Positions 4,005 to 41,881 of a DNA stretch of 43,104 nucleotides are shown in pieces. The translations under genes and the position numbers were made by a program. Within the stretch, counting starts at the first letter, position 1, and each line of letters starts with the position of its first letter. The DNA comes from a phage. The DNA lies in the sequence record PZ445418.1; one strand, given 5' to 3'. The notes under the pieces are model-generated. The model did no database searches, had not been told where the DNA came from, and saw only the letters and a program-made list of their open reading frames with translations.

Positions 4005-4305
4005 GTATGCAGCGATTGGGCTGGTAATTGGCCTGGCGGTTGGATTCTGGCAGGGTGATTCCTACCGCACTGGCGTTGAGGCGAGAGCGGCGCAAGAAGC
4101 GCAAGCGAAAGCCCAACGGCAGCAAACTAAGGTTGTCGAGGGGGCTGTGCAGGCAGAACAGGCCCGCGATGTGGAATACCGGACTATCACGAAAGAGGTT
4201 GTTAAATATGTTACGCGCCCTAACCGCCCTGATTGTAGTTTTGATTCTGAGCGCGTGCGGATCAAGCAACGTGCCATTGATGCCGCTAACCGAGTCGGTT
4301 TATAG
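3997..4305 (+). CDS. putative i-spanin (Rz-like)
   Basis: N-terminal TM helix (IKYAAIGLVIGLAVGFW) then Ala/Gln-rich helical domain; GTG at 3997 preceded by GGGGG; a TTG at 3967 is the alternative start. Confidence 0.4.
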   Translation: MIKYAAIGLVIGLAVGFWQGDSYRTGVEARAAQEAQAKAQRQQTKVVEGAVQAEQARDVEYRTITKEVVKYVTRPNRPDCSFDSERVRIKQRAIDAANRVGL

Positions 4306-4438
4306 ACCGCCTTGCACCTTTGAGAATGCCTCGGCAGACCCAGACGAAGACTTGCTTGTTGATGTTAAAAATATGGAGTGTGGGGCAAAGTTAAGGGCGC
4401 AAGTGCTGGAGTTGCAGAAAATAATTCGGGGGCCGTGA
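4208..4438 (+). CDS. putative o-spanin (Rz1-like lipoprotein)
   Basis: starts inside the Rz-like gene in another frame; lipobox LSAC after hydrophobic signal; RBS AAAGAGG 9 nt upstream of ATG; Pro/Cys-containing mature part. Confidence 0.45.
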   Translation: MLRALTALIVVLILSACGSSNVPLMPLTESVYRPPCTFENASADPDEDLLVDVKNMECGAKLRAQVLELQKIIRGP

Positions 4439-4452: not shown

Positions 4453-5217
4453 TTATCGCGGAATACCGCAAATCTCGTTTAACGTCTTCACGTCCAGTGC
4501 CACCGCCGTGGACTTCGGCTTGTCAGGGTACGGAATGAATTGTTCCACTTCAGGCCACGCCTTGATCAGCTTCTTATCGGTATTGTGCAAATCCAGCACG
4601 CCAGTTACGGTTAGTTTGAACGCGTCATACTTCGCGCGCAAATCGCGGCGGGCCTTGTCGTTACGGTCAAGGCGCTTGCAGAAATCATGGTCCGCCGGGT
4701 AGTCTACGCGACCGCGCGGAAGATATATCGGCAGCGATTTTCCGTCCTCGTCCACTTCGCACACTGAAGCCAGCATAACTTCCTCGTACCCCGGTACGAT
4801 ATCGCCGAGATCGGGAGATAGCTTATTCATATATTTCTCTTCCCAGTATCCGCGGTGCAGGCGGTATCGGAATCCATCGCCGCTCAATGATACGGTGCGA
4901 ACATTACCTCCTGCGTTGATATCGAATCCGGCGCTATAAACGCTGCCGATGCCTTTTGGCCGGTCGGAGTTATAGCTATACGTCGCCTTGTCGGTGTAAA
5001 CGCTAACGCCATACATCTGCGACTGGTTATCGCGGATTTCTGCGATATATGCGCGTAACTCGGCGAACGTGCGAATGCCTTCCGGCATACAGTCCAGCGT
5101 AATGGCGTACGCCAAGTCGCGAGAGTCCATCATGATGGATTTTGCTTCGGTCGCGATTTCATGGTCGCGCAGGATGTTAGCCAGAATCTTGTTTTTAACG
5201 TCTTTTGTCAGTCTCAT
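4453..5217 (-). CDS. hypothetical protein (opposite-strand gene inside head module)
   Basis: 254 aa from internal ATG (MRLTKD) of the 390-aa track ORF; own promoter upstream; no recognisable motif. Confidence 0.55.
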   Translation of the reverse strand: MRLTKDVKNKILANILRDHEIATEAKSIMMDSRDLAYAITLDCMPEGIRTFAELRAYIAEIRDNQSQMYGVSVYTDKATYSYNSDRPKGIGSVYSAGFDINAGGNVRTVSLSGDGFRYRLHRGYWEEKYMNKLSPDLGDIVPGYEEVMLASVCEVDEDGKSLPIYLPRGRVDYPADHDFCKRLDRNDKARRDLRAKYDAFKLTVTGVLDLHNTDKKLIKAWPEVEQFIPYPDKPKSTAVALDVKTLNEICGIPR

Positions 5218-5246
5218 TTTTGCGTCCTCGTTGTTGGTGTGCAACC

Positions 5247-5275
5247 AATATATGCAACCAATACGCGGATTGCAA
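5247..5275 (-). promoter_or_regulatory. sigma70-like promoter TTGCAA-17-TATATT
   Basis: hexamers with 17-bp spacer on minus strand; two TGCAACCAAT copies (5240-5249, 5253-5262) overlap it. Confidence 0.5.
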
Positions 5276-10527: not shown

Positions 10528-10841
10528 TTGAGGCGGCGCGACGCTTTTACGGCCCGCCGCCACCCTCCGAAGATTTAGCCGCGAGTTTATGGGGGGCGGC
10601 CCCTGAAGACGTTTGCCCTCCGGTCGCACTATGGCCCGACAACGCGAAGGTAGTCGCAGTCTTCACCGATTGCTCCACGCAATGGCGCACCGGATTCGGT
10701 GGCGCATACGGCATCGACTACGGCGTACTGGAATGGCTGTTTAGGATGCACGGCATCGAAAACGCACAACGTGCGTTTAAAGATATCAAACTAATGGAAC
10801 GCGTTGCGCTGGATGAAATGGCGCGGCAGAACCCAGCATAA
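10165..10841 (+). CDS. tail assembly chaperone GT-like fusion via programmed -1 frameshift
   Basis: heptamer A_AAA_AAC (10518-10524) just before G stop; -1 frame stays open about 107 codons to TAA at 10839-10841 with no start codon of its own. Confidence 0.5.
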
Positions 10842-10845
10842 CGAA

Positions 10846-11161
10846 GCGGGACAGGGGTGCTGTCCCGTTCTGTCCCGCCCACAATGAATCTGCATACCTA
10901 TTCAGTTTTACTGCATAAACTAAAAGCGGGACGGCGGGACGTCCCGATCTGTCCCGCCCCAGAAATGTGAATACCTATTCAGTTTTACTGCATAAAACAA
11001 ACGGGACAAAAAGCGGGACAGAATGGGGCGGGACAGATCGGGACGTCCCGCCGTCCCCCTCAGTGCTGCCGCGGGTTTCGGCCGATCGGGACAGGCGGGA
11101 CAACCACCAGTCTTTCAGACTAGACGGGGGTCAATGGCCCCCCTCGTCTGAGACTGAATAA
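10846..11161. repeat. iteron element A: GCGGGACA(G/A) array, two 26-bp box repeats, terminal GC-rich hairpin
   Basis: box ATACCTATTCAGTTTTACTGCATAAA at 10894-10919 and 10971-10996; about 9 forward and 5 reverse GGGAC units incl. palindromes GGGACGTCCC; hairpin 11107-11158. Confidence 0.8.
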
Positions 11162-21068: not shown

Positions 21069-21090
21069 AAAGCCCCGAAAGGGGCTTATT
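21069..21090. terminator. bidirectional intrinsic terminator
   Basis: AAGCCCC-gaaa-GGGGCTT between convergent genes; overlaps lipoprotein stop. Confidence 0.6.
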
Positions 21091-21304
21091 TGCAGGTTGT
21101 GCTTTTGAAATGGCCTACAGACACGTACTGGAAACTAAACGGATAGCCAGCCCGTAACATTTTATGACCGCTAACGTCCGCAACCCCAAACACAGGGACT
21201 GAGTACTCCATACCACTATTCATGTATGTTGCGTCGCAGATTTTAGACGGCATATTGGCACAACCGGACAAAAGAACCACACAAATCATAATTAAAGTTT
21301 TCAT
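21086..21304 (-). CDS. small lipoprotein, candidate Cor/Llp-like superinfection exclusion protein
   Basis: MKTLIMICVVLLSGC signal with lipobox LSGC; AGGAGA RBS; antisense to tail genes next to fibre locus. Confidence 0.55.
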   Translation of the reverse strand: MKTLIMICVVLLSGCANMPSKICDATYMNSGMEYSVPVFGVADVSGHKMLRAGYPFSFQYVSVGHFKSTTCK

Positions 21305-21363: not shown

Positions 21364-21384
21364 CCAATTTATGAGGATTCAGCT

Positions 21385-35505: not shown

Positions 35506-35536
35506 CATTGGTCATTAACCAACCGGAGACAGAACA

Positions 35537-35866
35537 ATGAACGTAAACGACGCAATCGAAATGTTAACCAAGACTGTTTGCAGTGAGACAAGCCGGTCCT
35601 GGGCGTATACCGATGCCGTGGGGGCGGTGTTATTCGAGGTCGAACGTCTGCGCAGTGTAGAAAAAGAATTACGCGCCAGGCTGGAATTGCTCAACGGTAC
35701 GGCGGCGAGCAAGCTGCAAAAGCACAATGAGGAAATGGAAGAATACAAAAAGCAGGTTATCCGTTTGCGCGCCGAGGGAAAGTCATGGGCGATGATCGCG
35801 GAGTTGACAGGAATTAATCAGAGCACCGTGCGATCCTGGGTACGCAATAACAAAACTTCGAAGTAA
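35537..35866 (+). CDS. helix-turn-helix DNA-binding protein
   Basis: 109 aa, C-terminal GKSWAMIAELTGINQSTVRSWVRN HTH-like segment; GGAGA RBS. Confidence 0.55.
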   Translation: MNVNDAIEMLTKTVCSETSRSWAYTDAVGAVLFEVERLRSVEKELRARLELLNGTAASKLQKHNEEMEEYKKQVIRLRAEGKSWAMIAELTGINQSTVRSWVRNNKTSK

Positions 35867-35876
35867 GGCAACGGCA

Positions 35877-38141
35877 ATGAGCTTAATTAAATTCGCTGTA
35901 ACAAGACCCGCTAAAAAAGGCGAAAAAGCCAGGGCGGAAAACTTCCAGATGACGACCGATGAGTTTTTCGAATTTATCAAAGATGCGAAAGAAATCTCCT
36001 CGGTGCATATCAACAAGACCGAGGATAAAGCCGAGTATGCGCGCCGCAAGCGTAAGGCCGACGGCATCGTGGCGTATACCAGTGATGGATTGCGTCGCAA
36101 GACCAGTGCGGTGGACCGCTCGATCCTGTTCTTCGATATTGACCGTACCGACACCCGCACCCTACGCCGCTGCCGTAAGGCGTTCATTGACGCGGGTATG
36201 GAACACGTATTTCACACCACAACCGGCGACCGTCACCCACTGAAAGGCGGTATGCGTTGTGCCCGTTTCCTGGTGCTCACCGATAAGCCTGTACCGGCTG
36301 AAGACCTGGGCCGCGTCCAGTATGCACTACTACACCAACTGGGCCTGTCAGATGTGGACTTCGACGATTGCACGAAAGACACTAACCGCCTAATGTACCT
36401 GCCACATCAGCAGTCTGTCGTTAAGTGTCACTACGGCAAACGTGCCCGCGTCCGTCGTCTGCTTCGCCTGGCTGATAAGCTGGGAGTGGAAAAAGAGGAA
36501 GTACGCCGCGAACTAACCCAGGGCGATGACGGCGTGGCAGACGGTATTCTGGATTGGTGCTTCCAGGCGGGATTCGAACCGCTGTCGTCCGGTCGTGGCT
36601 ATGAAGTGCCGTGCCCGAACGAACACCTGCACAGCGGCGAAGGGTCCACCGCTATTATGGTTAAGGATGGCGAGATCCGTTTCAAGTGTATGCACACCGG
36701 AAACGAGTGCTGTTCCGAACTGAACAGACACCAGCACCTGGCGCTACGTCTTATAGGGATCCCGGACCACCTGAACGTCGAACCGCACAACATGTCACGT
36801 AAGCAAATCGCCGCCATCCTCCCTGGACTGGACGACGAGGAAGTCGAATCGTGCTATGAACATATTGTTGATGCAGTTGGCGACGGCGAAGAATACGGCG
36901 TGTGCACCGATGCGGATCTGGATAACGAGCCGGTCGCACTCTTCAGTAAGCACGACCCGATCATAGAAGGCCTGGTAAACTTCAAATCGACCTGGTACAT
37001 GGCTGGCGAGTCGAACATCGGTAAATCGTTCTACGTGCTGGGGCAAATGGGCGCGGTTGCCGCGGGGATTCCGTTCGGTGGCGCGAAGGTAGTCCAGTCT
37101 CATTGCTTCTATTTCGACGCGGAAGGTGGTGAAGCCTCCAACCAGCGTAAAGAAGCATTGCAGATTAAATACGAGCACGACCTGGACAAGCTGCACATTA
37201 TCGATCTGCAATCACGCGGCTGGGATATCACCAGCAAATCCGGCTTGCGTGAAGTTATCAGCTTCATCAACCGCACCGCTAACGGCGAGCCGGTTGGCCT
37301 GGTGGCGTTCGACTCACTCAACCAGACTGTTGCGCTGCGGTCCGCCGATGCAAAACCGTTCGACGAGAATAACGCCAGCGATATGGGTGAAGTGGTCAAA
37401 GCGCTGAAGGCCATTGCGGAAAATACAGGCGGCAGTGCGGGCGTCATCCACCACCCAGCGAAGGGTGCAAACGGCAGCAGATCTCCCCGTGGGTCCGGCG
37501 CGCTTCATGGTGCTGTCGATTCTGCGTTCTTCCTGGAACAGCCGGACGACAACCAGCCAGGCCAACTCAACCTGTACCATGAAAAGGCACGTAACGGCAT
37601 CAAGCAAGCGCCGCGCGGCTTCGTCCTGCTTAAGTGCAAGGTTAAGGTGGATCTCCGCAAGTCCGAGGCGTTCGAAGCCCACCAGTCCACCAGCACCGGG
37701 CCGGACTTCGGTGATGTGGTTGCCGGATGGGACGTCAAGCCAATTGCCTCCACGCCACGCGACGAGACTCTCTACCTCGTACCGGTCGCCCTGGCGCCGT
37801 TCGCTATCGAACAGGCAAAGGCAGCGGGCAAAGCAGCAGTTAAGGAAGAGAACACCGCCGGACCGCGCAACGAAAAAGAAAAGGTACTTTACGCGGCGCT
37901 GGAAAAACTGATGGAAGACAACCCGGACCATACCGGATTCAGTAAATCGGCAATTGTCCGCCAGGCGGGATTGGCAAAAGGTGGCACATCGACGAAGGCA
38001 ATCGACGATATGGTCGAGCGCGGAGTGCTGGGTTTTTACACCGATCCGCACACTGGGGCCATCTATGGGTCGTCGAATATCGTCATTAAAACGAATATAC
38101 CCATCACGCTTTCGGCGACCGACGAAGATTTAAAAGATTAA
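35877..38141 (+). CDS. primase / replicative ATPase fusion protein
   Basis: 754 aa; Cys/His cluster CPNEHLH...CMHTGNEC; Walker A GESNIGKS and Walker B-like LVAFDSLN in C-terminal half. Confidence 0.7.
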   Translation: MSLIKFAVTRPAKKGEKARAENFQMTTDEFFEFIKDAKEISSVHINKTEDKAEYARRKRKADGIVAYTSDGLRRKTSAVDRSILFFDIDRTDTRTLRRCRKAFIDAGMEHVFHTTTGDRHPLKGGMRCARFLVLTDKPVPAEDLGRVQYALLHQLGLSDVDFDDCTKDTNRLMYLPHQQSVVKCHYGKRARVRRLLRLADKLGVEKEEVRRELTQGDDGVADGILDWCFQAGFEPLSSGRGYEVPCPNEHLHSGEGSTAIMVKDGEIRFKCMHTGNECCSELNRHQHLALRLIGIPDHLNVEPHNMSRKQIAAILPGLDDEEVESCYEHIVDAVGDGEEYGVCTDADLDNEPVALFSKHDPIIEGLVNFKSTWYMAGESNIGKSFYVLGQMGAVAAGIPFGGAKVVQSHCFYFDAEGGEASNQRKEALQIKYEHDLDKLHIIDLQSRGWDITSKSGLREVISFINRTANGEPVGLVAFDSLNQTVALRSADAKPFDENNASDMGEVVKALKAIAENTGGSAGVIHHPAKGANGSRSPRGSGALHGAVDSAFFLEQPDDNQPGQLNLYHEKARNGIKQAPRGFVLLKCKVKVDLRKSEAFEAHQSTSTGPDFGDVVAGWDVKPIASTPRDETLYLVPVALAPFAIEQAKAAGKAAVKEENTAGPRNEKEKVLYAALEKLMEDNPDHTGFSKSAIVRQAGLAKGGTSTKAIDDMVERGVLGFYTDPHTGAIYGSSNIVIKTNIPITLSATDEDLKD

Positions 38142-38260
38142 ATTTTGCGCGCATTGGTTGCCGATATGGGAATTCCCATATCGCTAAAAGGTTAAATTTT
38201 GCGCGCATTGGTTGCCATTTTGAGTGTTTTTATTTGGTCGTATTGGTTGCCGTGTAGTGT
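38138..38260. repeat. direct repeats flanking a perfect 20-bp palindrome
   Basis: TTAAATTTTGCGCGCATTGGTTGCC at 38138-38162 and 38192-38216; palindrome GATATGGGAATTCCCATATC at 38163-38182; third ATTGGTTGCC at 38242-38251. Confidence 0.75.
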
Positions 38261-38268
38261 AAATATAG

Positions 38269-38463
38269 TGAATAGTTATGCAGTTTTATTGCATAAAGTA
38301 AGCGGGACAGAAAGCGGGACAAACAAGGGGCGGGACAAAGCGGGACAGCACCCCCGTCCCGCCCCGGATGGCGCGGCTTCCAGAGGAGCGGGACAGCGGG
38401 ACAGCACCCCAGTCTTTCAGACTAGACGGGGGTCATCGGCCCCCCTCGTCTGAGACTGAATAA
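38269..38463. repeat. iteron element B (second copy of element A)
   Basis: box TGAATAGTTATGCAGTTTTATTGCATAAA, six GCGGGACA(G/A) units, terminal hairpin differing from copy A at only 2 positions. Confidence 0.8.
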
Positions 38464-38619
38464 AATCCGGGGGATTGCAAAATACACGGCAGCATGTTGC
38501 GAAGTGCGGTCGCGGATGAACTAGGCAACCAATGCGAGATGCATTATGCGGAGTGAAAAACACAGTTTGCAGTTGCAGCAGATAGCGATCAACTTTTTCA
38601 TGCGCATGTTTGATATTGG

Positions 38620-38648
38620 TTGCATCCGCCCTAGCACCCTGCTATATT
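38620..38648 (+). promoter_or_regulatory. sigma70-like promoter TTGCAT-17-TATATT
   Basis: flanked by ATTGGTTGCA at 38615-38624 and 38645-38654; leader matches the one upstream of 4453..5217. Confidence 0.55.
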
Positions 38649-38676
38649 GGTTGCACACCAACAAGAGGACTGAACA

Positions 38677-38982
38677 ATGAAAGCGATTATCTGGAATTAC
38701 TCCCTGGCCGTGGCAAAGCTGGACGAAGCGAAGGCACTAAACAGCAACGTAGATCAGGCGCTTCAGGTTGCGATACTGGCGCATCAATCCCTTCGCAGCG
38801 CGCTCTATGGCATGGGCGCCAGCATGGACGAACTGAGGCCGTTGCGTATGGCAATCCACGAATACGCGCGGGCATTCTCCCGTGAGCGCCTGGCGTATCG
38901 CTTCGGTATTGGCGATAAGGCAGTGACAAACGTCGCCAGGATTAAAGCCCAGCGCGAGCTATTCGCCCAGCTTGCGAAATAA
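38677..38982 (+). CDS. hypothetical protein
   Basis: 101 aa helical protein, RBS GAGGA. Confidence 0.5.
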   Translation: MKAIIWNYSLAVAKLDEAKALNSNVDQALQVAILAHQSLRSALYGMGASMDELRPLRMAIHEYARAFSRERLAYRFGIGDKAVTNVARIKAQRELFAQLAK

Positions 38983-38991
38983 GGGGCCAAA

Positions 38992-39261
38992 ATGAGACGT
39001 AGACGAGCTAAACAGCTTTCATGGCATATTCCACTGCATTGCATACGAATATGGGCTGAGAATGCGGTTGAGGGCGATTCTGTGTTCTGGTGCTATCGCG
39101 ATGATGTGAAGCCACTGACGCAGACTCGCTACTTGCACCAGTTTGCAGCACAACACGATTTCAGGGTGCGGACTTCCTTGCAACCAATGGGCATTCGTAT
39201 TACATTACGCCGGAAGCCCGCCGTTGAGCGGGTAGGCAAACACTGGAGGCTGAGCAAATGA
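38992..39261 (+). CDS. hypothetical protein
   Basis: 89 aa, RBS AAGGGG. Confidence 0.45.
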   Translation: MRRRRAKQLSWHIPLHCIRIWAENAVEGDSVFWCYRDDVKPLTQTRYLHQFAAQHDFRVRTSLQPMGIRITLRRKPAVERVGKHWRLSK

Positions 39262-39410
39262 CACCAATGCAAAGGGCACTAATGGCGGGATTCTCGCAGA
39301 AGTTTATTTCAGTAGACGCCTGCATAGCTGATTATGAGATGGACGGCATCGCTACGGTATGCGATGGCGACTATAAGACTGTTGACGAGATCGAGGAGAC
39401 TGAGCAATGA
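39258..39410 (+). CDS. small acidic hypothetical protein
   Basis: 50 aa, ATGA overlaps at both ends; not in ORF track. Confidence 0.35.
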   Translation: MTPMQRALMAGFSQKFISVDACIADYEMDGIATVCDGDYKTVDEIEETEQ

Positions 39411-39979
39411 AATTACTATTCCGCCGTAAGTGCGATGGCTGCATCCTGAAGCCGATCCAGACCCTGGATTCCTACGTCCGCTTGCAAAACGCGGCAGGCA
39501 ATCGGGTGTGGTGGGCGAAGAAAGACAAGCTGACGGCAAACTTTGACGTACTCACCCACGATATCGAGCGCGGCGATGTGCTGCGGGATATTCGCGACGG
39601 GCAGCTATGGATCGTGGAATACGTTGGTTTTAATAGCCTTCGTATGCAGACGCGCAAGGGTGGCGTTGCTGGTAACCTGGTTAAGAGCGTGGCGTACTTC
39701 GGACTAATCAACTACGAGCGAGTGGGCCGCAAATACAGCCTTCGCAAACACCAGCCGCATGAGCGCGTCGAGTTCCGCAAGTCGCAGCCCGCGTATGCCA
39801 CCTACGACGCGAGCAAAGTGATGGAGCCGATCCGTCAGGCGGCGCATGAGATAGTCAATCGCGTTGATGCCGTGACGAATGCACAGCGCCATGCGCAGGA
39901 ATACGGCGTGGGATTCATCCGTGTCGAACGAGACGGCAGCATGAACGCCATCGACCCGCGCTCGGTGATTCTGAAATGA
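39407..39979 (+). CDS. hypothetical protein
   Basis: 190 aa, translationally coupled. Confidence 0.5.
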   Translation: MKLLFRRKCDGCILKPIQTLDSYVRLQNAAGNRVWWAKKDKLTANFDVLTHDIERGDVLRDIRDGQLWIVEYVGFNSLRMQTRKGGVAGNLVKSVAYFGLINYERVGRKYSLRKHQPHERVEFRKSQPAYATYDASKVMEPIRQAAHEIVNRVDAVTNAQRHAQEYGVGFIRVERDGSMNAIDPRSVILK

Positions 39980-40116
39980 GTGCGACGATCCGTGATATGC
40001 TTCAGCACAACCGCTTTGAGATAGGCGGTCGGGTATTTCGCAATTACTTCGTGGCGCGTGCATGGGCGCGCCATATTGGAAAACCGGAAGGGGCAATACG
40101 ATGCTACACGATTTGA
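39976..40116 (+). CDS. small hypothetical protein
   Basis: 46 aa, ATGA overlap with previous gene; not in ORF track. Confidence 0.3.
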   Translation: MSATIRDMLQHNRFEIGGRVFRNYFVARAWARHIGKPEGAIRCYTI

Positions 40117-40388
40117 TATATTGGTTTGGTTTGATCTGCGGGCTGTGCCTGCTTACCGCGGTGCTGGTGGGCGTCCTGATGTTCGTAGTGTGGCCCGCGG
40201 TGGAAGCCGCCAGCATTACCCGCATGACGTTCGAGATATACAAGCGCCGTGGAATCAAGGAGCACCCGACCAGGTTGCGCATGTGGTGGCTGTGGTATCG
40301 CGATATGATAGGCGGGCGAACATTCGAAGCCGTCCGGTCTAGTGGATGGGAGTGGAAAGGCGTCGGCAAGTGGTCCATTTTCGATTAA
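40101..40388 (+). CDS. membrane protein (one TM helix)
   Basis: from ATG at 40101; hydrophobic YWFGLICGLCLLTAVLVGVLMFVVW then basic/Trp-rich tail. Confidence 0.45.
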   Translation: MLHDLIYWFGLICGLCLLTAVLVGVLMFVVWPAVEAASITRMTFEIYKRRGIKEHPTRLRMWWLWYRDMIGGRTFEAVRSSGWEWKGVGKWSIFD

Positions 40389-40405
40389 TTATGCAAGCGT
40401 GATAT

Positions 40406-40440
40406 AGTCCCAGTGAGATAAAACTTACTGGGACTTTTTT
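40406..40440 (+). terminator. intrinsic terminator abutting holin start
   Basis: AGTCCCAGT / ACTGGGACT 9-bp stem, 12-nt loop, TTTTTT ending at 40440; ATG at 40441. Confidence 0.65.
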
Positions 40441-41467: not shown

Positions 41468-41881
41468 ATGTTAAAAAGTATTCTTGATCATAACGCCGAC
41501 GCGCTCGCCGCGCTGGCTAAAACCGAAGACCCTGGCGCACGCGCTATCATCGCGGACACTATCAGCCATGCAGGCGTCTTTGACGCGAAGCTGCCTAGCG
41601 TGCCGGAGAGTAAGCCGGTGGCAAGTGCGACCATAACCATCACCCCAGTGTCCGCCGCAGTCGGTGCGAAGGCCGCCGCTTCTGTTGCCGTCCAGCCATC
41701 CGACGCAACTAACAAGGCTGGGAAGTGGGTGTCCGCAAACCCTGACTGCGCGGCAATCGACCAGACTACCGGCGAAATCACAGCGAAATCGGAGGGTGGC
41801 GTCCACATCTTTTGGGTGGCATCCGATGGAGGCGGGGCGATGGCGTCCGCCATCTTCACCGTAACGGGAGCAGGAGCATAA
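41468..41881 (+). CDS. Ig-like (Big_2-type) domain protein
   Basis: C-terminal 80 aa fit Big_2 pattern (ITITP...ATNK...W-S-NP...A-ID...G-ITAK..G...I....DGG). Confidence 0.5.
   Translation: MLKSILDHNADALAALAKTEDPGARAIIADTISHAGVFDAKLPSVPESKPVASATITITPVSAAVGAKAAASVAVQPSDATNKAGKWVSANPDCAAIDQTTGEITAKSEGGVHIFWVASDGGGAMASAIFTVTGAGA

Follow-up and report, generated by a model that had tools for sequence, protein, structure and literature searches.

Clusters of small phage genes have been described in several settings that resemble the locus studied here. The nin region of phage lambda (ninA–ninI), located between O/P and Q/lysis, consists of small overlapping open reading frames (ORFs), is carried on the pR transcript with internal terminators, and is dispensable for plaque formation. 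In acr-aca loci, a strong promoter with an inverted repeat over its core is followed by variable first genes and then a conserved small gene, and close relatives differ in gene content. Single genes provide a further comparison: Ksap1 (sensed by KpAvs2), anti-Tmn (ORF35 of phiSMS22), and Nmad5 are small, genus-restricted, dispensable, and variable between isolates (PMC11564622, PMC11846954). The T7 class I genes 0.3–0.7 and the (pre-)early genes of T4 and T5 are likewise small, mostly non-essential, and read by the host RNA polymerase, with homologues in a narrow phage group only.

The window analysed here is a stretch of 43,104 nucleotides from a virulent E. coli phage of the genus Dhillonvirus. 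It contains a cassette of six small ORFs that is real and kept across the genus. A preliminary description had listed six coupled ORFs at this position; all six were confirmed on the + strand, with lengths of 101, 89, 50, 190, 46, and 95/108 aa and three ATGA overlaps. The features of the cassette and of its partner locus, in window coordinates, are as follows:

38615..38648, + strand: cassette promoter ATTGGTTGCAT, read from the sequence, with −35 TTGCAT (38620–25), a 17-nt spacer, and an extended −10 TGcTATATT (38640–48)
38646..38662, + strand: putative operator ATTGGTTGCACACCAAC, which includes TTGGT-N5-ACCAA and covers the −10 and +1 positions
38677..38982, + strand: P1, 101 aa, basic, phrog_9839
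38992..39261, + strand: P2, 89 aa, pI 11.3, phrog_12533
39258..39410, + strand: P3, 50 aa, acidic (pI 4.05), phrog_15977, in an exchangeable slot
39407..39979, + strand: P4, 190 aa, hypervariable, predicted to form two SH3/Tudor/KOW-like beta-barrels, a disordered linker, and a C-terminal helix plus hairpin
39976..40116, + strand: P5, 46 aa, basic, phrog_13628
40101..40388, + strand: P6, 95 aa (108 aa from 40062), phrog_2531
40406..40440, + strand: intrinsic terminator closing the cassette, with a 12-bp stem (40406–40435, 6 GC pairs) and a U-tract
5231..5275, − strand: partner promoter/operator at the nmad5 locus (TTGCAA, 17 nt, TATATT, and the same 17-mer), kept in other genomes
4453..5217, − strand: nmad5, 254 aa, PF18757 (E 8.5e-57)

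P1 and P2 are separated by 9 nt, ATGA start/stop overlaps join P2 to P3, P3 to P4, and P4 to P5, and P5 overlaps P6; these overlapping codons would couple translation. A Shine-Dalgarno sequence precedes every cassette start except 40062. For P6, the start at 40101 is the likelier one, given its AAGGGG Shine-Dalgarno sequence and a PHROG alignment in which the first aligned position of the 108-aa form is residue 14. Each ORF matches a PHROG of its own (E 1e-35 to 1e-96), and dN/dS, calculated for each gene or gene region from 7–22 distinct Dhillonvirus alleles, lies between 0.12 and 0.66, which indicates purifying selection on all six. Together, the PHROG matches and dN/dS values identify the ORFs as genuine genes rather than chance reading frames. 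In approximately 150 Dhillonvirus genomes, all six are annotated as “hypothetical”.

A repeat-rich, origin-like region (38142–38600) and the primase-helicase gene directly precede the cassette, and two holins (PHROGs 2359 and 2508) and an endolysin lie downstream. With replication genes on one side and lysis/late genes on the other, the unit occupies the lambda nin position, and it shares with nin the small overlapping ORFs and a dispensability that we deduce here from natural deletions. It differs in having no sequence relation to any Nin protein, in its own promoter and closing terminator, and in its hypervariable members and exchangeable slots.

A sigma-70-type promoter (38620–38648) and a strong intrinsic terminator (40406–40440) delimit the cassette as one promoter-to-terminator unit, and host sigma-70 RNA polymerase would read the six genes as a single transcript ending at the terminator. 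The promoter was not called in a consensus scan because its −35 hexamer scores only 3/6. The window nevertheless holds three instances of its architecture, ATTGGTTGCnn-N17-TATAnT, where zero are expected, and this architecture is kept upstream of the cassette at every related locus examined. It is also found at the start of the SNF2-helicase and Dam-methylase operons, and a Cor-like lipoprotein (an exclusion gene) sits behind a promoter with this motif. We found no transcriptome of a Dhillonvirus phage in the literature, and timing and repression are read from the sequence. The operon would most likely be switched on early, alongside the leftward DNA-metabolism operons of the same promoter architecture. 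The small, apparently dispensable proteins, their presumed transcription by the host RNA polymerase, and their mostly narrow distribution recall the T7, T4, and T5 early clusters, from which the cassette differs in lying near the lysis genes.

The cassette leader recurs once more in the window, with a perfect 22-nt match between 38643–38664 and 5231–5252. Among Dhillonvirus genomes in IMG/VR, the 17-mer ATTGGTTGCACACCAAC is present in two copies in each of 11, one at the cassette and one at the nmad5 locus. The promoter/leader that the preliminary description had assigned to both the cassette and the gene at 4453–5217 is thus a conserved pairing, and nmad5 is probably co-regulated with the cassette. 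The palindromic operator that the two loci have in common, placed across −10/+1, probably mediates either shut-off or this co-regulation. Nmad5 itself is reported to be non-essential and to have a link to Tmn sensing, and its cloned gene is apparently toxic (PMC11846954). The inverted repeat over the core promoter, the variable first genes followed by conserved P2, and the differing content of close relatives make the locus similar to acr-aca loci. In contrast to these, its operator also occurs at a second locus, Pfam/NCBIfam scans of P1–P6 revealed neither an HTH nor an Aca-like domain, the P1 model is a four-helix bundle rather than an HTH, and the cassette shows no homology to known anti-defence proteins. 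P2 may nevertheless have an undetected DNA-binding fold. A search for co-variation between the P2 truncation and operator mutations returned single substitutions only.

The terminator (dG −24.1 kcal/mol) lies in an intergenic region that is nearly invariant across the genus, and the holin ATG (40441) directly abuts its U-tract. It sets the cassette, which the preliminary description had placed before the lysis genes, apart from them, and would stop read-through into the holin genes. This arrangement bears on the possibility that the cassette, or P6 together with a 46-aa transmembrane ORF found at some loci, is a lysis accessory module that regulates lysis, for instance as an antiholin setting the time of holin action, or aids envelope disruption. 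The location just before the two holin genes and the endolysin gene, the N-terminal transmembrane helix and Trp/Arg-rich tail of P6, and a Jerseyvirus homologue of P6 encoded close downstream of a holin-holin-lysozyme array are in line with such a role. We nonetheless consider it unlikely, as a strong terminator that does not vary lies between P6 and the holin, a spanin encoded elsewhere (4208–4438) leaves no lysis function missing, all proteins but P6 are soluble and without a lysis-related match, and the Jerseyvirus homologue lies among nin-like small genes outside the lysis genes.

P6 has homologues in approximately 330 Jerseyvirus and other enterobacterial siphoviruses; the other five cassette genes are restricted to Dhillonvirus. 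It is a true homologue (30–40% identity) of the PHROG 2531/VOG4863 membrane protein, with which it shares its length, the N-terminal transmembrane segment (Kyte-Doolittle maximum 2.87 in a 19-residue window), and the conserved motifs WPxVEAxSxTR and GRxFEAxRSxGWxWxGVGKW that follow this segment. The Trp/Arg-rich C-terminal domain is predicted to be cytoplasmic by the positive-inside rule. The Jerseyvirus gene differs in its location, after the lysozyme gene and before terS, with neighbours annotated as NinH-like and gene-23-like, and the family itself is uncharacterised. Two specific assignments were rejected. P6 is not a missing spanin, as an Rz-like spanin identified by PHROG matches is encoded at 4208–4438; its C-terminus is predicted to lie in the cytoplasm instead of the periplasm, and no lipobox ORF was found in or near P6. 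Nor was it assigned as a holin or antiholin, since phrog_2531 is distinct from PHROGs 2359 and 2508 and the terminator separates P6 from the holins.

P2 and P5 are the other conserved members. P2 occurs in 155 phage records, without exception Dhillonvirus, with a mean column identity of 92% and a dN/dS of 0.18, and P5 is found in 150 records at 85–100% identity, with a dN/dS of 0.12. The pI values of P2, P4, and P5 range from 9.9 to 11.3. This basic character could reflect replication or recombination accessories comparable to lambda NinB/Orf, Rap, and NinH, with P2 and P5, and perhaps P4, binding DNA beside the origin-like repeats; the location next to the primase-helicase gene and the repeats that precede the cassette, and a promoter architecture matching that of the DNA-metabolism operons, fit this reading. 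It appears doubtful, however, because P1–P6 gave no match to NinB, NinG, NinH, or any nucleic-acid-binding family (Pfam/NCBIfam), hypervariability and natural truncations are unusual in replication factors, and neither an acidic protein such as P3 nor a membrane protein such as P6 would be expected. A resemblance of P2 to eL20 in the PDB profile search (E 0.24) was judged to be due to chance.

Database searches placed none of the six proteins in a characterised family, consistent with the earlier statement that they contain no assignable motif. At E ≤ 1, P1–P6 gave nothing but sub-threshold noise against Pfam/NCBIfam and matched no PADLOC family, and their PHROGs are exclusively families of no known function. 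PDB sequence profiles for P1, P2, P4, and P6 yielded nothing below E 0.2, and the cassette proteins show no similarity to Pfam-modelled anti-defence proteins or solved structures. The fold and profile searches that the preliminary description had proposed, carried out with two AlphaFold models and PDB profiles, returned no analogue. The same description had raised the prospect of homology to structural or lysis proteins; P1–P6 show no such match, and PHROG and Pfam searches for virion structural proteins were negative. In a lysate proteome of phage EE09, in which the cassette genes correspond to CDS44–50, the cassette products are absent from the 24 proteins detected, at limited depth (PMC10673088). 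The products are likely to be non-structural accessory proteins.

The two fast-evolving proteins, P1 and P4, stand out from their surroundings. Their identity between phages is 37–82%, compared with 98–99% for the primase and 95–99% for the endolysin, and clustering at 90% identity yields 425 clusters for P4, 113 for P1, and 40 for P6. P1 is predicted to be a four-helix bundle (AF2 pLDDT 94.6); its two ends are conserved, whereas residues 18–55 in the middle are hypervariable. Its dN/dS is 0.66 in the middle and 0.23–0.33 at the ends, and its identity between phages is 51–82%, against 95–99% for the flanking genes. Foldseek searches with the P1 model against the PDB and BFVD retrieved its own family only, with no analogue. 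An exhaustive profile search with P4 across 1.8 billion proteins gave 24 matches, which comprise family fragments and one chance match to a plant B3-domain protein. Synonymous divergence is also raised in both genes, which indicates that P1 and P4 represent old allelic lineages. When positive selection was tested for by region, dN/dS nowhere exceeded 1. It is very unlikely, in our assessment, that the cassette encodes a late-gene regulator comparable to lambda Q or Mu C, in which, for example, the P4 barrels or P2 would bind RNA polymerase or the invariant pre-holin region and switch on the lysis/packaging operon. CarD, the UvrD C-terminal domain, and NusG, as Tudor/KOW proteins that bind RNA polymerase, were considered as possible counterparts of P4.

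A comparison of 20 loci reveals a conserved backbone with exchangeable slots. P2, P5, and P6 are conserved, and P3 is present in some genomes only (105 of approximately 156 records, dN/dS 0.24), with its slot elsewhere empty or filled by unrelated small ORFs. The first slot carries different genes in different phages, as it does at the nmad5 locus, and the 46-aa transmembrane ORF lies between P5 and P6 at 8 of the 20 loci. The ORFs in the variable slots and in the nmad5 first slot have no known function, bar one sub-threshold beta-clamp-like match. Several isolates lack parts of the cassette: PNS1 is without P4 residues 69–190 and the whole of P5, JL1 without P4 residues 1–107, and slur05 without P2 residues 1–35. 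Judged from these sequenced isolates, the genes appear to be individually dispensable, and assembly errors could be among the truncations. Searched at the DNA level, 5,426 complete E. coli genomes yielded no match.

The variable gene content, the occurrence of small proteins in the membrane (P6 and, at some loci, the 46-aa ORF product), and the presence in this phage of a Cor-like lipoprotein exclusion gene behind the same promoter motif would also suit an operon that guards the infected cell from superinfecting phages rather than acting against host defences. Such an exclusion function seems distinctly improbable to us, given the mostly soluble products and the absence of matches to PADLOC models or known exclusion proteins.

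We instead favour, with a probability of roughly one half, the interpretation that the cassette is a dispensable accessory operon in a nin-like position, likely expressed early or in the middle of infection and acting at the phage–host interface. The fast evolution of P1 and P4 and the variable gene content suggest that the genes are dispensable and serve interaction with the host, not lysis or virion structure. According to this interpretation, basic P2, basic P5, and membrane-anchored P6 would form a conserved core, the P1 four-helix bundle and the tandem SH3-like barrels of P4 a fast-evolving soluble pair, and acidic P3 would fill an exchangeable slot taken by other small ORFs in relatives. 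We infer that the products bind components of the host or of competing phages, with P1 and P4 placed at an arms-race interface, where they would inhibit host factors that vary or be recognised by host sensors.

Of the host-takeover and anti-defence functions that the preliminary description had suggested, an anti-defence activity of the cassette is plausible. In the literature, no cassette gene has a reported defence-related phenotype, and both the RAZR trigger and the SECphi18 escape mutations lie outside the cassette. The Dhillonvirus counter-defence or defence-trigger proteins that we found in the literature, namely anti-Tmn, Ksap1, Nmad5, portal, SSB, and DNA polymerase, also map elsewhere (PMC11846954, PMC11564622, PMC13017515, bioRxiv 10.1101/2022.08.27.505566). 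Of these, Ksap1, anti-Tmn, and Nmad5 resemble the cassette genes as outlined above, and nmad5 additionally shares its operator; they differ in being separate genes at other loci, with Ksap1 located between methyltransferase and phosphatase genes. Anti-Tmn is absent from phiSMA8, which has the full cassette (PMC11846954).

More tentatively, we hypothesize that the cassette and the nmad5 locus constitute a genus-wide, one-operator regulon, the slots of which are refilled by recombination at repeated leader and junction elements. In this speculative scenario, P1 and P4 would found new families. Their members would be inhibitors of immune or core factors of the host, with RNA polymerase as a possible target of P4, or else the patterns that defence systems sense.

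Dhillonviruses are among the most frequently isolated E. coli phages and serve as workhorses of defence-system research (SECphi18, BASEL Bas14–18) and phage-therapy engineering. Our analysis provides ranked targets, comprising a dispensable-looking operon, two fast-evolving proteins, and an operator in common with Tmn-linked nmad5. If P1 or P4 are counter-defence proteins or immune triggers, they could explain host-range differences between near-identical phages and would represent new protein families; if they are neither, the cassette is another block of small phage genes with no assigned function, as is common in phage genomes.

Counterpoints to a host-interaction role include a dN/dS below 1 in every region tested and the housekeeping-like conservation of P2, P5, and P6. 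The pointers towards host-takeover or anti-defence activity are circumstantial: the hypervariable P1 and P4, the variable content, the natural deletions, the genus restriction of five of the six genes, and the absence from the EE09 proteome.

The region matches 156 phage records at 84–89% DNA identity. Sorted by the opening word of the organism name, they comprise 141 Escherichia, 5 Shigella, 5 Dhillonvirus and 2 Sodalis records, with one each for Acinetobacter, Salmonella and Campylobacter; the closest is Escherichia phage GeorgBuechner/Bas16, and every matching record for which taxonomy was fetched belongs to the genus Dhillonvirus. Clusters of small genes without known function are the rule in phages, and the annotation of all the cassette genes as "hypothetical protein" in those records was already known, as were PHROG families for all six. 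The best-supported reading, to which we give roughly even odds, is that the cassette is a dispensable accessory operon in a nin-like position, whose variable members would act at the phage–host interface. New here are the backbone-plus-slots anatomy, the hypervariability of P1 and P4, now quantified, and a two-locus putative operator. The local gene order is HTH protein, primase-helicase (35877–38141), repeat-rich non-coding region, six-gene cassette, holin, holin and endolysin. The cassette ORFs are as follows.

38677–38982, + strand: P1, 101 aa, basic (pI 10.0)
38992–39261, + strand: P2, 89 aa, basic (pI 11.3)
39258–39410, + strand: P3, 50 aa, acidic (pI 4.05)
39407–39979, + strand: P4, 190 aa, basic (pI 9.9)
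39976–40116, + strand: P5, 46 aa, basic (pI 10.8)
40101–40388 (95 aa) or from 40062 (108 aa), + strand: P6, pI 9.4, single N-terminal transmembrane helix and Trp/Arg-rich tail, the tail predicted to be cytoplasmic by the positive-inside rule

All six ORFs are present as the preliminary description reported. ATGA overlaps join P2 to P3, P3 to P4 and P4 to P5; P5 and P6 also overlap, and P1 and P2 lie 9 nt apart. A Shine-Dalgarno sequence precedes every start except the ATG at 40062. For P6 we prefer the start at 40101, because the PHROG alignment begins there and because the 13 codons upstream are, in 8 of 20 related loci, part of a separate 46-aa transmembrane ORF between P5 and P6. Each protein matches its own PHROG (E 1e-35 to 1e-96), and dN/dS is 0.03–0.62 in pairwise comparisons and 0.12–0.66 over 7–22 distinct alleles, showing that all six are real genes.

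The promoter previously placed at 38620 was not called by a generic promoter scan because its −35 hexamer scores 3/6. It is nevertheless backed by three observations, namely the motif ATTGGTTGC, a shared architecture and conservation in related loci.

38620 (TTGCAT), 17 nt, 38640–48 (TGcTATATT), + strand: cassette promoter, read from the sequence
38153, 38207, 38242, 38615, 38646, + strand: example sites of ATTGGTTGC
5249, 5262, 21368, 25773, 25790, 28732, − strand: example sites of ATTGGTTGC

The window has 14 copies of the 9-mer ATTGGTTGC, which overlaps the cassette −35, where 0.5 would be expected. Most sites overlap −35 elements of sigma-70-like promoters (ATTGGTTGCnn-N17-TATAnT); promoters of this kind stand before the cassette, the nmad5 gene, a Cor-like gene, an SNF2-helicase operon and a Dam-methylase operon. 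The full architecture is found three times (0 expected), at the cassette and at the heads of the two leftward operons for the SNF2-type helicase and the Dam methylase; the cassette promoter is kept in every related locus examined. The motif represents a −35 extension specific to the phage, or else the binding site of a regulator. The cassette would be transcribed by host RNA polymerase from the promoter class of the DNA-metabolism operons. That its products are themselves nin-like helpers of DNA metabolism is the least unlikely of the alternatives, and less likely than an accessory operon. The Cor-like gene (21086–21304, − strand; promoter with ATTGGTTGC at 21368) encodes a 72-aa lipoprotein matching a Cor superinfection-exclusion PHROG (E 1e-27).

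Two features lie upstream. The HTH protein (35537–35866, + strand, 109 aa), called a transposase in some records, has an HTH_23/sigma-70 region-4-like domain (E 2e-7 to 2e-6) and is the leading candidate to bind the ATTGGTTGC elements. The repeat-rich region 38142–38600, 3' of the primase gene, is 76–85% similar to 10840–11160 and contains a 54-nt unit, present in 2.5 copies and carrying a 22-nt perfect palindrome (CGATATGGGAATTCCCATATCG), together with GGGAC iterons. The SO-1 record marks both this region and its ~11 kb counterpart as repeat regions, and it may serve as an origin of replication or in regulation. The ORFs of 84 aa and 44 aa that other phages annotate here are probably not genes, since they have no PHROG match or span the promoter itself.

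At its 3' end the cassette is bounded by a terminator, a 12-bp hairpin with a U-tract (dG −24 kcal/mol), the unit ending 1 nt before the holin ATG. The 52-nt P6–holin intergenic region (40389–40440) is near-invariant in all loci, varying only in the loop, and varies less than the synonymous sites in the genes on either side. The cassette is therefore a discrete unit outside the lysis operon, and the terminator would insulate it from the holins. An extended −10-like box (TGaTATAGT, 40400–40408) overlaps the 5' arm of the terminator, whose U-tract abuts the holin ATG; a transcript starting inside the hairpin would be without the terminator, and the region could hold a late promoter or an antitermination site serving a holin-to-spanin operon.

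An accessory role in lysis, conceivable for P6 only, is opposed both by this terminator and by a spanin encoded elsewhere in the genome; it is unlikely, and less likely than an accessory operon. The spanin is a lipoprotein ORF (4208–4438, + strand) with an LSAC lipobox and matches to Rz-like spanin PHROGs 5672 and 1267. It closes the terminase–portal–head block just 5' of a bidirectional terminator, ~7 kb downstream of the holin and endolysin genes across the genome ends, so that lysis genes stand at both ends of a single putative late operon. Behind the endolysin, a 137-aa protein (41468–41881, + strand) has a Big_2 Ig-like domain; its homologue in phage EE09 (CDS40) was found in lysates and in infected cells (PMC10673088), and this gene of the lysis region may encode a decoration protein.

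Across 20 Dhillonvirus loci the cassette has a constant backbone: promoter, slot, P1, P2, slot, P4, P5, slot, P6, terminator, holin. The first slot, empty in this window, can also hold unrelated ORFs of 59 or 65 aa, and in some loci P1 is instead extended by an in-frame fusion of 58 aa. This beta-rich N-terminal extension (total 159 aa) occurs in loci L001 and L003 (GeorgBuechner and EE09) and in clusters P0136, P0139 and P0142, directly behind the conserved leader, and deposited annotations differ on its start codon. The P2–P4 slot holds P3 (present in 105 of ~156 records), divergent P3-like ORFs, ORFs of 50–63 aa, or a 114-aa paralogue of P4 residues 44–109. The junctions have in common a repeat, GACTGARCAATGA (SD-spacer-ATGA), found four times against 0.13 expected.

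38668–38680: GACTGARCAATGA, P1 leader
39398–39410: GACTGARCAATGA, P4 junction
35528–35540: GACTGARCAATGA with one mismatch, HTH gene at 35537
39245–39261: similar sequence, P2/P3 junction

First-slot genes of other phages end in this element too, which suggests, by inference, that recombination at the repeats adds and removes genes.

Amino acid identity of proteins in this window to seven relatives.
Primase: 98–99%
Endolysin: 95–99%
Holins: 91–99%
P5: 91–98%
P2: 75–98%
P6: 72–95%
P1: 51–82%
P4: 37–80%

At 90% identity, a 5.8-billion-protein collection yields 425 clusters for P4, 113 for P1 and 40 for P6. Variation in P1 centers on residues 18–55 (dN/dS 0.66, versus 0.23–0.33 at the ends), and no region has a dN/dS above 1 that would mark positive selection. 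Because synonymous divergence is raised in P1 and P4 as well, their alleles are indicated to be old lineages reassorting between genomes. Sequenced isolates also lack parts of the cassette: PNS1 is without P4 residues 69–190 and all of P5, JL1 without P4 residues 1–107, and slur05 without P2 residues 1–35. These natural truncations speak against a late-gene regulator, which is the least probable of the alternatives to an accessory operon.

Within the phage collection, P2, P3, P4 and P5 are confined to Dhillonvirus records; in the protein collection, relatives of P1 come from ~44 kb contigs or are named Dhillonvirus phage proteins. P6 has homologues at 30–40% identity in ~330 Jerseyvirus and other enterobacterial siphoviruses; in one Jerseyvirus it lies 3' of holin-holin-lysozyme, amid small nin-like genes and 5' of terS. 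The cassette has no match in 5,426 complete E. coli genomes.

The earlier failure to assign any motif or function was borne out by every search. Pfam, NCBIfam and PADLOC returned nothing for the cassette proteins, and PDB profile searches gave no match below E 0.2. P1 is predicted to be a confident four-helix bundle (pLDDT 94.6, pTM 0.86) with no specific analogue in PDB or BFVD outside its own family. The P4 model, of moderate quality (pLDDT 66), has a pair of small beta-barrels, a disordered linker, a long helix and a hairpin; when 1.84 billion representatives were searched exhaustively by profile, the 24 matches were all family fragments or paralogues bar one chance match.

The literature searched gives no function to the cassette genes. 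The defence-linked Dhillonvirus proteins are encoded outside it: Ksap1, sensed by KpAvs2 (PMC11564622), anti-Tmn and Nmad5 (PMC11846954), the portal protein that triggers RAZR (PMC13017515), and the SSB and DNA polymerase in which escape mutations arise (bioRxiv 10.1101/2022.08.27.505566). Exclusion of superinfecting phages by the cassette is less likely than an accessory operon, and slightly less probable than a lysis role for P6. Proteomics of EE09 picked up 24 phage proteins from lysates and 4 from infected cells, with the cassette products (CDS44–50) absent at a depth too shallow to judge expression (PMC10673088); this absence argues against a structural role.

The accessory-operon reading extends to a second locus. 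The promoter and leader said to be common to the cassette and the gene at 4453–5217 were confirmed as a 22-nt perfect match.

38643–38664 and 5231–5252: shared stretch spanning the −10, +1 and leader start, including TTGGT-N5-ACCAA
4453–5217, − strand: Nmad5 gene (PF18757, E 8.5e-57)

Nmad5 is reported to be non-essential and apparently toxic on cloning, with Tmn-escape mutations mapping there (PMC11846954). Each of 11 IMG/VR Dhillonvirus genomes carries the 17-mer ATTGGTTGCACACCAAC twice; where the downstream gene is readable, one copy lies 5' of the cassette and the other 5' of the nmad5 locus. The number of other IMG/VR matches fits chance; they fall in unrelated viruses, within a coding context that is conserved. 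The first slot of the nmad5 locus is likewise variable, being empty or holding an ORF of 109, 135–140 or 172 aa. At the sequence level, this pairing and variable slot support well the proposed co-regulation of two variable loci, which would act through the shared putative operator. The first genes of the nmad5 locus (loci L030, L058, L068, L055 and L071) are unrelated among phages and sit between that operator and nmad5; the one of 172 aa matches, below threshold, the central domain of the DNA polymerase III beta-clamp (E 7e-4). In HK578, nmad5 looks disrupted, since the frame found in its place spans just 136 aa and departs from it beyond residue 5.
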